The notes beneath the pieces were generated by a model. The model was not told the DNA's origin and ran no database searches. It was given only the letters and a program-made list of their open reading frames with translations. A stretch of DNA of 64,000 bases from Escherichia phage ECp13. Positions 15,759 through 62,419 of the stretch are shown piece after piece; positions within the stretch are counted from its first letter, which is position 1; every line of letters begins with the position of its first letter. Both the position numbers and the translations under genes were made by a program. The stretch lies in the sequence record PP274704.1. The stretch is one strand, 5' to 3'.

Positions 15759-16289
<531 letters not shown>

Positions 16290-16774: not shown

Positions 16775-17248
16775 ATGAAAACATATCAAGAATTTATCAC
16801 TGAAGCAGCTATTAATTCTCAAATTATCGCTGAATCTTTTATTGATCTTTTGAAATTTAAAAAAGGTCAAAAAATCACTGCTGTATTGGATGATGGTACA
16901 GAAGTTGAGATGGATGTACAGGGATATAATTATGCAGTAGATGGAAAACTGTATAATAAATCTCATGCTAAATTTGATTCATTTGACGATTTTGTTAATA
17001 CAGTTGAAGATGAAAAAACTCGTAGATCCATTGCAACTGGCGACGCTAAGGTTCTTATGGCACATGGTCATGAACGTATCCGCGCGAAGCAGAATAAAAT
17101 GGGTGAAGATAATTTTGCATTAGTTGGTTATCAATCTGGTAAACAAACTTATGGTTATCAGCGTACTGCTACCATGTATAACAAAAATGGTAAAATCGCT
17201 TTCGTGAATAGCAAAGGTTCTATTCAGTACGTCAAATCATTCAAATAA
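16775..17248 (+). CDS. internal-protein-like protein with capsid targeting sequence
   Basis: 157 aa; N-terminus MKTYQEFITEAAINS matches the recalled T4 IP targeting sequence MKTYQEFIAEA. Confidence 0.65.
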   Translation: MKTYQEFITEAAINSQIIAESFIDLLKFKKGQKITAVLDDGTEVEMDVQGYNYAVDGKLYNKSHAKFDSFDDFVNTVEDEKTRRSIATGDAKVLMAHGHERIRAKQNKMGEDNFALVGYQSGKQTYGYQRTATMYNKNGKIAFVNSKGSIQYVKSFK

Positions 17249-17353
17249 GCAAATAAGAAATATGGGAACAAGCTGGACCTCATGATTCTATGAGGGATTC
17301 CCGCCAACCTGTAATAAGGTCGAGCCCGAGTGCGGTAATGGGTAAATACAGAA

Positions 17354-17941
17354 ATGGACAATTCATGCGCCATGGAATGGCCCAAATTTAGAGAGAATAA
17401 AATGAGAACATTTTTAACTGGTCCTTATCTATCCCTGATGAATGCTTTTACATACCATTCTGATGCTAGAGTAGAAGAAATTTGTAAAAACGATTATATC
17501 CTACCATTTGAAGACTTACTCAAACAGTATTGCACACTTCGACTAGATGGTGGACGTCAATCCGGTAAATCAACTGCTGTGACTAACTTTGCTGCTAATT
17601 GGCTGTATGATGGTGGAACAGTTATTGTTCTTTCTAATACTTCAGCTTACGCTAAAATTTCTGCAGGCCACATTAAAAAAGAATTTTCTCGTTATTCTAG
17701 TGACGATATTCGATTCCGCTTATTTACTGATTCTGTCCGTAGTTTTGTTGGTAATAGAGGCAGCAAGTTCAGAGGTTTATCGCTTTCGCGGATTTTGTAT
17801 ATAATCGATGAGCCGGTTAAATCTCCCGATATGGATAAAATTTACGATATTCATATTGAAACTGTACAATACTGTTGCAATAGTAAATGTTGCACTGGTG
17901 GTATTACTCGTCCGCAGTTTTTCGTAATCGGAATGCAATGA
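17354..17941 (+). CDS. P-loop NTPase-like protein
   Basis: Walker A-like GGRQSGKST; start uncertain (in-frame ATGs at 17354, 17372, 17402). Confidence 0.5.
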   Translation: MDNSCAMEWPKFRENKMRTFLTGPYLSLMNAFTYHSDARVEEICKNDYILPFEDLLKQYCTLRLDGGRQSGKSTAVTNFAANWLYDGGTVIVLSNTSAYAKISAGHIKKEFSRYSSDDIRFRLFTDSVRSFVGNRGSKFRGLSLSRILYIIDEPVKSPDMDKIYDIHIETVQYCCNSKCCTGGITRPQFFVIGMQ

Positions 17942-18267
17942 TGACAGACACACAGCTTTTCGAATATCTTTATTTTTCGCCAAAAACTATTAAAAATAAA
18001 TTGGTGAATCATTTTGAAATTTTGGCAAATAACAACGTCTTGAGCGAATTTTATCCTAAGCAATACAAATTACAAAAAGGTGTATTCAAAGGATGCAGAG
18101 TTTTGTGTACTGCTCCTAATGCAAGATTAATGAATAAAATTCCATATTTTACCATGGAATTTATTGATGGACCTTTTAAAGGACTAATCACCCAAAGTTT
18201 AATGGCATATGATTCTGAGCCATTTTTAATTAAAGAACAGTCTTGGATAAATTTATTTTCTAATTGA
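17938..18267 (+). CDS. hypothetical protein
   Basis: ATG overlapping preceding stop (ATGATGA); 109 aa. Confidence 0.45.
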   Translation: MMTDTQLFEYLYFSPKTIKNKLVNHFEILANNNVLSEFYPKQYKLQKGVFKGCRVLCTAPNARLMNKIPYFTMEFIDGPFKGLITQSLMAYDSEPFLIKEQSWINLFSN

Positions 18268-18273
18268 GGTTAT

Positions 18274-18636
18274 ATGAAAGCATATCAAATTCTTGAAGGC
18301 ACACATAAAGGTACTATTTATTTTGAAGATGGTATTCAAGCACGAATTATTGTTTCTAAAACCTTTAAAGAGGACTCTTTTGTAGACCCAGAAATTTTCT
18401 ACGGTTTGCACACCCGTGAAATTGAAATTGAACCACAGCCTACAGTTAAAATTGAAGGTGGTCAGCACCTGAACGTTAACGTTCTGCGTCGTGAAACTCT
18501 GGAAGATGCAGTTAAGCATCCGGAAAAATATCCGCAGCTGACCATCCGTGTATCCGGTTATGCAGTTCGCTTTAACTCTCTGACTCCGGAACAGCAGCGC
18601 GACGTTATCGCTCGTACCTTTACTGAGAGCTTGTAA
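18274..18636 (+). CDS. autonomous glycyl radical cofactor (GrcA/YfiD-like, T4 Y06I-like)
   Basis: 120 aa; C-terminal glycyl-radical motif [25 protein letters not shown]; GC-rich host-like codons in the 3' half. Confidence 0.75.
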
Positions 18637-18857
18637 TGGCAAAGATAATTATTGAAGGTTCTAAAGATGTGTTAAATGCTTTCGCCGAATGGTTTAGTAA
18701 TTCAGGCGAACAGCAATTTAATGAAGCGTGGACCATGGGTGATATTGATGGAATTTATCCTACGACAGAAATTTCTGTTCAAGGATATGGCATTCATGAA
18801 CCTATTCGTTTAGTTGAATATGATTTATGTACTGGTGAGGAAGTCAAATATGATTGA
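18636..18857 (+). CDS. hypothetical protein
   Basis: 73 aa; start overlaps preceding stop (TAATG). Confidence 0.5.
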   Translation: MAKIIIEGSKDVLNAFAEWFSNSGEQQFNEAWTMGDIDGIYPTTEISVQGYGIHEPIRLVEYDLCTGEEVKYD

Positions 18858-19116
18858 AGATATTAAAGGTTATAAGCCACATACTGAAGAGAAAATTGGT
18901 AAAGTGAATGCTATCAAAGATGCTGAAGTTCGTTTAGGACTTATCTTTGACGCTTTATACGATGAATTCTGGGAAGCACTGGATAATTGTGAAGACTGTG
19001 AATTCGCGAAGAATTATGCTGAAAGCCTCGATCAGTTAACTATTGCTAAAACGAAACTCAAAGAAGCCAGTATGTGGGCTTGTCGTGCTGTGTTCCAACC
19101 AGAGGAAAAATATTAA
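18850..19116 (+). CDS. hypothetical protein
   Basis: 88 aa from ATG at 18850, overlapping preceding stop. Confidence 0.5.
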
Positions 19117-60604: not shown

Positions 60605-61633
60605 ATGTCATCAATACCTTGGATTGATAATGAGTTTGCATACCGTGCATTAGCTCATTTACCTAAATTCACACAAGTAAATAATAGTTCAACTTTTAAA
60701 TTGCGGTTTAGATGCCCTGTTTGTGGAGATTCAAAAACCGACCAAAATAAAGCCCGTGGATGGTATTATGGTGATAATAATGAAGGAAATATTCATTGTT
60801 ATAACTGCAACTATCATGCACCAATCGGAATATATTTAAAGGAGTTTGAACCTGATTTATATCGTGAGTATATCTTTGAAATAAGAAAAGAAAAAGGTAA
60901 AAGTCGTCCAGTAGAAAAACCTAAAGAACTTCCTAAACAACCTGAGAAGAAAATAATTAAATCTCTTCCGTCATGCATTAGATTAGATAAACTGGCGGAA
61001 GACCATCCAATTATAAAATATGTAAAAGCTCGTTGTATTCCAAAGAATAAATGGAAATATCTTTGGTTTACAACCGAATGGCCTAAATTAGTTAATAGTA
61101 TAGCGCCAGGAACATATAAAAAGGAAATACCTGAGCCTCGTCTTGTTATTCCAATTTATAATGCTAACGGAAAAGCTGAGTCTTTTCAAGGACGTGCATT
61201 AAAGAAAGATGCTCCTCAAAAATATATCACCATCAAAGCTTATCCTGAGGCAACAAAAATTTATGGAGTTGAACGGGTTAAAGATGGTGATGTATATGTT
61301 CTAGAAGGACCTATAGATTCACTTTTTATTGAAAATGGTATAGCTATTACGGGCGGTCAATTAGACCTAGAAATTGTTCCATTTAAAGATAGACGTGTAT
61401 GGGTTTTAGATAATGAACCTCGTCATCCTGACACTATTAAACGAATGACTAAATTGGTCGATGCAGGAGAAAGGGTTATGTTTTGGGACAAATCTCCCTG
61501 GAAATCAAAAGATGTTAATGATATGATTAGAAAGGAAGGTGCAACCCCTAAACAAATTATGGAATATATGAAAAATAATATTGCCCAAGGGTTGATGGCT
61601 AAAATGCGGCTATCTAAATATGCTAAGATTTAA
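60605..61633 (+). CDS. 61: DNA primase gp61
   Basis: 342 aa; zinc ribbon CPVCGDS...CYNCNYH; matches T4 gp61. Confidence 0.92.
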   Translation: MSSIPWIDNEFAYRALAHLPKFTQVNNSSTFKLRFRCPVCGDSKTDQNKARGWYYGDNNEGNIHCYNCNYHAPIGIYLKEFEPDLYREYIFEIRKEKGKSRPVEKPKELPKQPEKKIIKSLPSCIRLDKLAEDHPIIKYVKARCIPKNKWKYLWFTTEWPKLVNSIAPGTYKKEIPEPRLVIPIYNANGKAESFQGRALKKDAPQKYITIKAYPEATKIYGVERVKDGDVYVLEGPIDSLFIENGIAITGGQLDLEIVPFKDRRVWVLDNEPRHPDTIKRMTKLVDAGERVMFWDKSPWKSKDVNDMIRKEGATPKQIMEYMKNNIAQGLMAKMRLSKYAKI

Positions 61634-61830
61634 ATTAACCCAACTAAAGCAAATGCTAAATCTACGAATGTATCAAGAGTAATTACTGGAATATTAACGC
61701 CATGAGCAATAGCAATTGGCGATAAAACAAAATTCCAGAGTAAAATTCCTACCATAGCAGAAATAGTAAAAGCTATACGTTTTTTATTACCTTTTATGGC
61801 ATTAACAAGTGCCATTAATTTTTGTACCAT
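61630..61830 (-). CDS. small membrane protein encoded antisense between 61 and 56
   Basis: 66 aa, two hydrophobic helices; strong SD AAGGAGG just upstream of the ATG on the minus strand. Confidence 0.4.
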   Translation of the reverse strand: MVQKLMALVNAIKGNKKRIAFTISAMVGILLWNFVLSPIAIAHGVNIPVITLDTFVDLAFALVGLI

Positions 61831-61901
61831 ATGTCCTCCTTATTGCTTTATATATTTATTGTATAATTAATCTACTAACCCATGAATTGAAAGGAAAAAT
61901 A

Positions 61902-62419
61902 ATGGCTTACTTTAATGAATGTAGTCAACTGATTGAAGGCGCTGATAAAGCTCAAAATGAATACTGGGATATTCTCGGCGATGAAAAAGACCCGCTGCAG
62001 GTTATGCTTGATATGCAGAAATCTCTGCAGGTTCGTTTAGCTAAAGATAAACCTGAATATAACCGTCATCCTGATGATTTGGCTACTGCAGGTGAAGTTG
62101 TTGATTGGCTGCGTAATCAGAAAGATTATATTGATGATGAATTCCGCGAACTTCTGACTTCTCTTGGTGGTATGAGCAATGGCGAAAAAGATGCATCTGC
62201 TGTATGGAAGCTTGGAAGTCGCAACACGGTGAACGTCGTGAAACTCTGATTACTGACTTATCTCCACAAGACCAGTTGGAAATTAAATTCGAAATGATTG
62301 ATATTCTTCATTTCGTTCTGAACATGTTCCAAGGTCTCGGTCTTACGGCTGAAGAAATCTTTAAACTTTATTATCTGAAAAATGCTGAAAACTTCGCTCG
62401 TCAAGACCGAGGTTATTAA
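61902..62419 (+). pseudogene. 56: dCTPase gene 56 disrupted by a frameshift (two overlapping ORFs)
   Basis: N-part from ATG 61902 stops at 62249; C-part (..SPQDQLEIKFEMIDILHF..RQDRGY) is in another frame to 62419; removing 8 bp at 62211-62218 gives about 169 aa. Confidence 0.7.

Follow-up and report, generated by a model that had tools for sequence, protein, structure and literature searches.

Is a short reading frame that runs against all of its neighbors in an early replication-gene cluster a gene, and if so, what might its product do? The question is raised by a stretch of 64,000 nucleotides (nt) of Escherichia phage ECp13 (sequence record PP274704.1; the whole stretch is called the window here), in which an open reading frame (ORF) of 66 codons lies on the minus strand between the primase gene 61 and gene 56 (Table 1). 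The window is a T4-type phage genome (Tequatrovirus); its positions 61300–62300 are 99.2% identical to Shigella phage vB_SsoM_113 and 95–99% identical to more than 300 further records. A preliminary description of the locus had left two answers standing: a lone counter-oriented gene for a small membrane protein, transcribed in the manner of late genes, or a spurious ORF. Our analysis favors the first. We put a probability of about 0.7 on the small ORF being a genuine accessory gene whose product is a small, late inner-membrane modulator.

A selectively maintained reading frame

The length of the small ORF alone is no proof that it is a gene, because the mononucleotide-shuffled window contains about 15 ATG-initiated ORFs of at least 66 amino acids (aa) over the six frames. 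Using tblastn, we found the small ORF in 692 phage records, and it is essentially full length in 686 of them. The identities are 90–100% in about 500 records and below 60% in about 190. The preliminary description had named interruption of the ORF in close relatives as evidence for a spurious frame. When this was checked, it did not hold: only a handful of about 700 copies are truncated.

The substitutions follow the frame. The ratio of nonsynonymous to synonymous substitution (dN/dS), calculated by the Nei–Gojobori method, is 0.07–0.30 within Tequatrovirus. Across genera, the synonymous sites of these sequences (called RB32ORF030w-type here, after the gene name used in some records) are saturated, with a proportion of synonymous differences (pS) of 0.53–0.86 and of nonsynonymous differences (pN) of 0.22–0.39. 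Between the window and Mosigvirus F31 there are 28, 12 and 44 substitutions at codon positions 1, 2 and 3, and the variable sites within Tequatrovirus are distributed 9/1/13 over the same positions. There is no plus-strand annotation here, and the codon pattern is therefore not attributable to an overlapping gene. At 57–62% nucleotide identity the frame of the small ORF keeps 48–68% aa identity without a stop codon, and the other five frames contain 1–10 stops; it is the sole frame that is free of stops in all lineages. A GGAGG-type Shine–Dalgarno sequence is retained in every lineage examined, and in the window the minus strand reads AAGGAGG-ACAT-ATG (61841–61828).

These comparisons indicate that the small ORF is almost certainly a real gene maintained by selection. 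The spurious-ORF alternative was rejected on conservation, purifying selection and the codon pattern. Of the two answers first proposed, the small membrane-protein gene with late-type transcription is the one supported, by the conserved slot and orientation, by the selection, and by the late-type box described below.

A conserved late-promoter box

The T4 late promoter is an 8-bp box, TATAAATA, at −13 to −6, and 32 of 50 T4 sites match it perfectly (PMC2988020). The commonest variant is A at −13, which occurs at 9 of the 50 sites (PMC2988020), and A/T variation at this position is also common in relatives of T4 (PMC1524935). The early and middle transcripts of T4 share one polarity, and late transcripts alone run either way (PMC2988020). 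The small ORF lies opposite 41, dmd, sp, 61 and 56, and its strand is thus compatible with transcription at late times only. Upstream of its start codon, a late-promoter-type box is found that equals the T4 consensus with A at −13 (Table 1). With the exception of one lineage, the core NATAAATA is present 14–23 nt ahead of the ATG throughout, despite otherwise unrelated upstream sequence.

The motif was also examined over the whole window. ATAAATA is about two-fold depleted, with 19 copies as compared to 39 ± 6.5 in 100 dinucleotide shuffles, all of which had at least 19. Of the 19 copies, 11 lie 13–40 nt before an ORF start, including those of e (near 15761/15774) and soc (62454), and the geometry of the small-ORF box matches that of the other NATAAATA boxes that precede window ORFs such as these two. 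From its depletion and its placement before ORFs, the motif therefore behaves as a signal. The depletion is consistent with selection against stray late promoters.

We infer from the polarity opposite to the early cluster and from the conserved box that the small ORF is probably expressed late, as a gp55-dependent gene. The gp55-containing RNA polymerase would transcribe it from the variant box AATAAATA, leaving a leader of approximately 15 nt. A scan of the 2.6 kb downstream gave no terminator-like site on the minus strand, and the late transcript would therefore probably extend into gene 61 as antisense RNA. We also looked for a sigma-70 promoter of the small ORF; only weak 9-of-12 matches were seen, not above the level in shuffled sequence, and this candidate was dropped.

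A predicted inner-membrane protein

The product of the small ORF has the sequence MVQKLMALVNAIKGNKKRIAFTISAMVGILLWNFVLSPIAIAHGVNIPVITLDTFVDLAFALVGLI. An AlphaFold2 model built on a shallow family alignment (mean predicted local distance difference test score, pLDDT, of 75) has helices at residues 2–13, 16–42 and 52–62. The N-terminus is basic, with a net charge of +5 in the first 20 residues, and few tryptic sites lie outside it. The best 19-residue segment (residues 19–37) has a Kyte–Doolittle (KD) hydropathy of 1.96 and a summed Hessa value of +0.7, and residues ~19–42 form the sole robust transmembrane segment, which is present in every subfamily. The protein thus has at least one helix that is hydrophobic over some 19 residues or more and is flanked as the positive-inside rule requires, as expected of an inner-membrane protein.

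The preliminary description had given the protein two hydrophobic helices, and only the first of these stands. The C-terminal segment (residues 49–66, VITLDTFVDLAFALVGLI) carries two conserved acidic positions one helical turn apart, and its insertion into a membrane is marginal (summed Hessa of approximately +4 kcal/mol); the last 25 residues have a net charge of −2. In the type B forms of the family (see below) and in Jiaodavirus, this segment is shorter or more polar, at +7 to +11 kcal/mol.

Sequence and model together suggest that the small ORF very probably encodes a membrane protein. Its N-terminus would be cytoplasmic, because the first 20 residues carry a net charge of +5 and the positive-inside rule applies. 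Residues ~19–42 would then span the inner membrane, and the short tail, made of HG-x3-P and the acidic amphipathic helix, would lie at the periplasmic face or dip back as a weak second helix. Of the two arrangements we favor an N-in protein with a single span and a short amphipathic tail at the periplasmic face; a weak helical hairpin is the alternative that we do not favor. In a joint alignment of all subfamilies, W32, N33, P38, G44 and P48 are invariant, and the N-terminus and the flanks of the transmembrane segment evolve fast around this fixed motif.

A narrow family with an accessory distribution

The small ORF matches PHROG 2024, a family of unknown function, with an E-value of 5.4e-31 (residues 2–66 against profile positions 1–65 of 65), and a homologue search gave 33 close homologues. 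The exact protein of the window is deposited at NCBI under many accessions. The gene is named RB32ORF030w in vB_SsoM_113 and RB51 and is a 'hypothetical protein' in many other records, with such annotations in hundreds of T4-like genomes in all. It occupies the same slot in the same orientation in vB_SsoM_113, RB51, BW-1, phage 132 and fPS-2. Syntenic homologues, convergent with gene 61 and upstream of gene 56 on the opposite strand, were found in the metagenomic T4-like contigs P0028 (68%) and P0030 (52%), in Mosigvirus F31 (54%), and at about 48% in the Gaprivervirus phages VR25, TH40, MN01 and P479. Kanagawavirus and Jiaodavirus likewise have syntenic copies on the opposite strand. A profile search of 1.84 billion representative proteins returned six clusters only, all of the same family or fragments of it, and the family is therefore a narrow orphan within the Tevenvirinae.

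The Gaprivervirus phages carry two tandem, strongly diverged paralogues (VR25, L014 1495–1901; MN01, L020 1510–1916; P479, L026 1310–1716). A 65-aa 'type A' protein, which resembles that of the window, is followed 8–9 nt downstream by a 66-aa 'type B' protein that has a Shine–Dalgarno sequence only and no promoter box of its own. By this arrangement the pair resembles a late operon of two genes. The downstream paralogue of TH40 is degraded. Kanagawavirus Q7622 has a single copy, a type B protein of 69 aa. A 63-aa form is found in Jiaodavirus, in 169 records, with weaker matches to it in Citrobacter phage Merlin and Salmonella phage Melville. When the type B protein was used as the tblastn query, the search reached the copies in JS98 (61%), Tequatrovirus, Mosigvirus and Jiaodavirus, and the subfamilies are linked in this way. 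The slot is empty or occupied by plus-strand genes in Slopekvirus Roth90, Krischvirus MIZ6, Winklervirus CHI14, Karamvirus CW742 and an Acinetobacter phage.

As its distribution indicates, the small ORF is a genuine accessory gene of T-even-type phages with a product of 63–69 aa. We regard it as accessory rather than essential because it is absent from the slot in several genera, because a few truncations exist, and because Gaprivervirus has tandem paralogues. This hypothetical gene family had been catalogued before and is not a new kind of system. What is added here is the purifying selection, the conservation of the late-promoter box, the links between subfamilies across the Tevenvirinae, and the omission of the gene from the T4, T2 and JS98 records examined; the additional links join the Kanagawavirus, Jiaodavirus and Gaprivervirus type B forms to RB32ORF030w.

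Labels in some of these records need caution. The BW-1 record (OR125554; L002) appears unreliable, as 61.1 and 61.2 are both called 'major capsid protein' there. Its label for the small ORF, 'putative head morphogenesis protein', is not credible, since 61.1 and 61.2 are called capsid proteins in the same record.

Possible function and alternative explanations

In model transmembrane helices, a polar asparagine inside the bilayer strongly promotes helix–helix association. The invariant mid-membrane Trp-Asn, with a proline five residues later, may likewise serve for self-association or for docking to the transmembrane region of a larger inner-membrane protein of the phage or the host. With low confidence, we envisage a small regulatory membrane subunit that would most likely tune an event at the envelope, for instance the timing of lysis, lysis inhibition or membrane integrity. 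The protein would then be neither an enzyme nor itself a former of holes. Such a role at the envelope or in lysis is our best guess, but we consider it less likely than not. With its conserved Trp-Asn…Pro motif and its sporadic duplication, the small ORF is a tractable subject of study and a candidate new regulator among small membrane proteins.

Several points weigh against a late inner-membrane modulator. The box deviates from the consensus at −13 (A or G) in the window, T4 and T2, and contig L007 has TATTAATA only. We found no transcript, 5′ end, ribosome footprint, peptide or localization data on the small ORF, and the literature on the locus name, T4 ribosome profiling, unannotated ORFs and transcription-start mapping yielded nothing about it. 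None of Pfam, NCBIfam, PADLOC, the Protein Data Bank (PDB) or Foldseek gave an informative match. Scans of the protein with Pfam, NCBIfam and PADLOC had no match at E up to 10, a sequence-profile search of the PDB returned only noise (E ≥0.15), and Foldseek gave nothing against the PDB. Against BFVD, Foldseek returned only the family itself, through a member labeled 'Holin', and two uncharacterized 63-aa proteins from Enterobacter-phage-type genomes. The C-terminal segment can be placed either way, and the function of the protein is pure inference from sequence and model.

Three other explanations were weighed against the small late inner-membrane modulator. The sequence might be untranslated and kept instead as the terminator of gene 61, as a 3′ untranslated region, or as an RNA, antisense or late, by which gene 61 is regulated. 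This would account for a terminator-like hairpin of the early strand that lies inside the 5′ end of the small ORF and is identical in T4, and it agrees with a late transcript that would be antisense to gene 61, with a minus strand that has no terminator-like site downstream, and with the lack of protein-level data on the small ORF. It does not agree with substitutions that follow the translated frame both across genera and within Tequatrovirus, with a dN/dS well below one, with a frame that stays open where the other five close, or with a strong Shine–Dalgarno sequence conserved at the proper distance. Mosigvirus, moreover, is without the hairpin although the small ORF persists there. Rfam gave no match at the gathering score. 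As for a type I toxin-like hydrophobic peptide under the control of a cis-antisense small RNA, no small-RNA family matched, and the convergent overlap with the gene 61 mRNA was all that was seen. On these comparisons, a purely non-coding element, whether terminator or antisense RNA, is very unlikely.

If the small ORF is translated, its product might be a holin-, pinholin- or antiholin-like lysis protein that accumulates late in the inner membrane and forms or gates lethal lesions. It has the size of a class II holin, is probably late and membrane-embedded, and has one or two hydrophobic segments; the copies in OE5505 and Klebsiella phage KP1079 are labeled 'holin' or 'putative holin', and the pair Met1 and Met6 of the Tequatrovirus proteins has a superficial likeness to a dual start. 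These labels carry no cited evidence, and we regard them as unsupported; the dual start (holin/antiholin) was also rejected, as Met6 is not conserved outside Tequatrovirus and L004. With E up to 10 allowed, none of the holin families in Pfam or NCBIfam matches. The last residues (...ALVGLI) are hydrophobic and no charged tail follows, the charge being at the N-terminus, and in Jiaodavirus and the type B forms the second hydrophobic segment is either not long enough or not apolar enough. The gene is neither beside the endolysin gene (near 15.8 kb in the window) nor in a lysis cassette, and T-even phages already have the holin T with the antiholins RI and RIII. A lysis protein of this kind is distinctly unlikely. 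We judge in much the same way a membrane-located protection factor, which would act in superinfection exclusion or counter a membrane-acting defense or abortive-infection effector of the host via an inner-membrane component. The patchy distribution among genera, the tandem, diverging Gaprivervirus paralogues, the fast-evolving N-terminus and flanks around a fixed motif, and the position in a variable region near sp (spackle) form a pattern that is common for genes in phage–host and phage–phage conflict. However, the strand and the promoter box of the small ORF point to late expression, whereas expression is early for imm and sp, the exclusion genes known in T4. PADLOC gave no match, and no relation to imm is detectable, since tblastn at E up to 0.01 found no second locus in these genomes (693 places in 692 records).

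An unannotated gene in T4, T2 and JS98

In the T4 records (NC_000866.4 and AF158101.6), a feature-free gap of 309 bp separates dam (16846–17625, complement) from 61 (17935–18963, complement). The gap comprises positions 17626–17934 (L012 3127–3435), and an intact 66-codon ORF was found at NC_000866 17738..17938 (+). Its protein is 94–95% identical to that of the window, and both the Shine–Dalgarno sequence and the GATAAATA box are present. The small ORF is also unannotated in KJ477684 (T4 'wild'), NC_054931 (T2) and EF469154 (JS98). In a collection of 15 billion proteins, the exact T4 protein occurs only in assemblies of raw sequencing runs, and it has no NCBI or UniRef accession. Expression, proteomics and knock-down studies that rely on the T4, T2 or JS98 annotations will miss the small ORF. 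A bolder proposal, which we consider unlikely, is that T4 carries here an unrecognized late gene whose product, a member of a new family of phage transmembrane regulators, would take a so far overlooked part in one of the classic envelope phenomena of T-even phages, namely lysis timing, lysis inhibition or the initiation of proheads at the membrane, by way of its conserved mid-membrane Trp-Asn…Pro.

Between the small ORF and gene 56 lies a hotspot of insertion, which is unoccupied in the window (61831–61901). T4 has dam there, T2 has dam and a 181-aa ORF, and Yersinia phage fPS-2 has a homing endonuclease. The small ORF retains its own upstream signals in each of these arrangements. The records ECO07P1 and ECO07P3 match the query in two pieces that span about 650 bp beyond the query length.

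Neighboring genes and interleaved signals

The remaining credible genes between approximately 59.4 and 64 kb (61.4, sp, a 61.2-like ORF at the 61.2 position, 61.1, 61, 56 and soc) are all on the plus strand, and the small ORF is a lone counter-oriented gene, as had been described. The extent and the strong AAGGAGG Shine–Dalgarno sequence of the 66-aa minus-strand ORF were likewise confirmed by the ORF listing and the sequence. So was the overlap of its 3′ end with the stop of gene 61: one TTAA tetranucleotide is common to the stop of the small ORF (61630–61632) and that of gene 61 (61631–61633).

Table 1. Positions of the small ORF, its signals and its neighbors in the window, with the late-promoter-type box of related phages.
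Feature	Position	Strand	Details
Small ORF (coding sequence including stop), 66 aa, ATG start	61630..61830	−	ORF listing; PHROG 2024; annotated at the equivalent place in vB_SsoM_113, BW-1 and phage 132; purifying selection, codon periodicity
Shine–Dalgarno sequence AAGGAGG	61835..61841	−	4 nt before ATG; CCTCCTT on the plus strand; annotated ribosome-binding site in phage 132
Late-promoter-type box AATAAATA (TATAAATA with A at −13)	61853..61860	−	22 nt before ATG; motif match
Middle-promoter-like site of gene 56	61844..61867	+	MotA box TGCTTTA (61844–61850), 11-nt spacer, TATAAT (61862–61867)
Terminator-like hairpin (8 bp) and T-run	61796..61825	+	Inside codons 6–12 of the small ORF; pattern scan
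Gene 61 (DNA primase)	60605..61633	+	Convergent with the small ORF; 4-nt overlap of ends
Gene 56 (dCTPase)	61902..62419	+	Divergent neighbor of the small ORF; frameshifted in the window by a 1-nt deletion near 62210
Box in the window, fPS-2 and BW-1	22 nt before ATG		AATAAATA
Box in L004 and F31	22 nt before ATG		AATAAATA
Box in T4 and T2	21 nt before ATG		GATAAATA
Box in Gaprivervirus (VR25, TH40, MN01)	16 nt before ATG		CATAAATA
Box in Jiaodavirus Kpn6N	14 nt before ATG		CATAAATA
Box in Kanagawavirus Q7622	20 nt before ATG		TATAAATA (perfect)
Box in contig L007	14 nt before ATG		TATTAATA only

The 71 nt between the two start codons (61831–61901) hold divergent, interleaved signals. The middle-promoter-like site of gene 56 fits the MotA-box consensus, which has a spacing of 12 ± 1 bp (PMC2988021), and the fPS-2 record has a 'predicted middle promoter' at the equivalent site. 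In the window, the late box AATAAATA of the minus strand falls within the 11-nt spacer between the MotA box and TATAAT. The small ORF is a clean example of a late-strand island of one or two genes set back to back with a middle promoter within a cluster of early replication genes.

The plus-strand hairpin inside the small ORF is a candidate for terminating the transcription of gene 61. T4 has the identical hairpin, and the fPS-2 record shows a terminator at the corresponding position. Its fold is weak (z = −1.6), and it is absent in Mosigvirus F31.

Gene 56 is broken in the window into two overlapping ORFs (61809..62249 and 62204..62419). The 1-nt deletion is seen as GGAAG-CTTGG in the window versus GGAAGCCTTGG in vB_SsoM_113 (99% identical). 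An error of sequencing or assembly in a CC run could explain it, or else the frameshift is real, in a gene that is normally essential.

Comparison with known systems

The class II holins and pinholins, such as S21-68 of phage 21, are like the small protein in their length of about 65–70 aa, in being probably late, and in being embedded in the inner membrane by two hydrophobic segments at most. The small ORF differs from them in having no sequence or profile similarity, no charged C-terminal tail and no lysis cassette, and in a second segment that is not a conserved transmembrane helix; the holin T of the T-even phages is unrelated to it. T4 Imm, Ac and RI are also small, non-essential membrane proteins of T-even phages encoded in variable regions. 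They show no detectable similarity to the small ORF, which gives one tblastn place per genome, lies on the opposite strand, and is predicted to be late. AcrZ, MgtR and KdpF resemble it in size, in having a single robust transmembrane helix, and in a conserved polar or aromatic motif within the helix that suggests helix–helix binding. This likeness is one of analogy and not of homology, and the small ORF, unlike them, is phage-encoded and probably late. The closest counterpart is RB32ORF030w/PHROG 2024, which is the same gene as the ORF of the window, with no difference in sequence or context.

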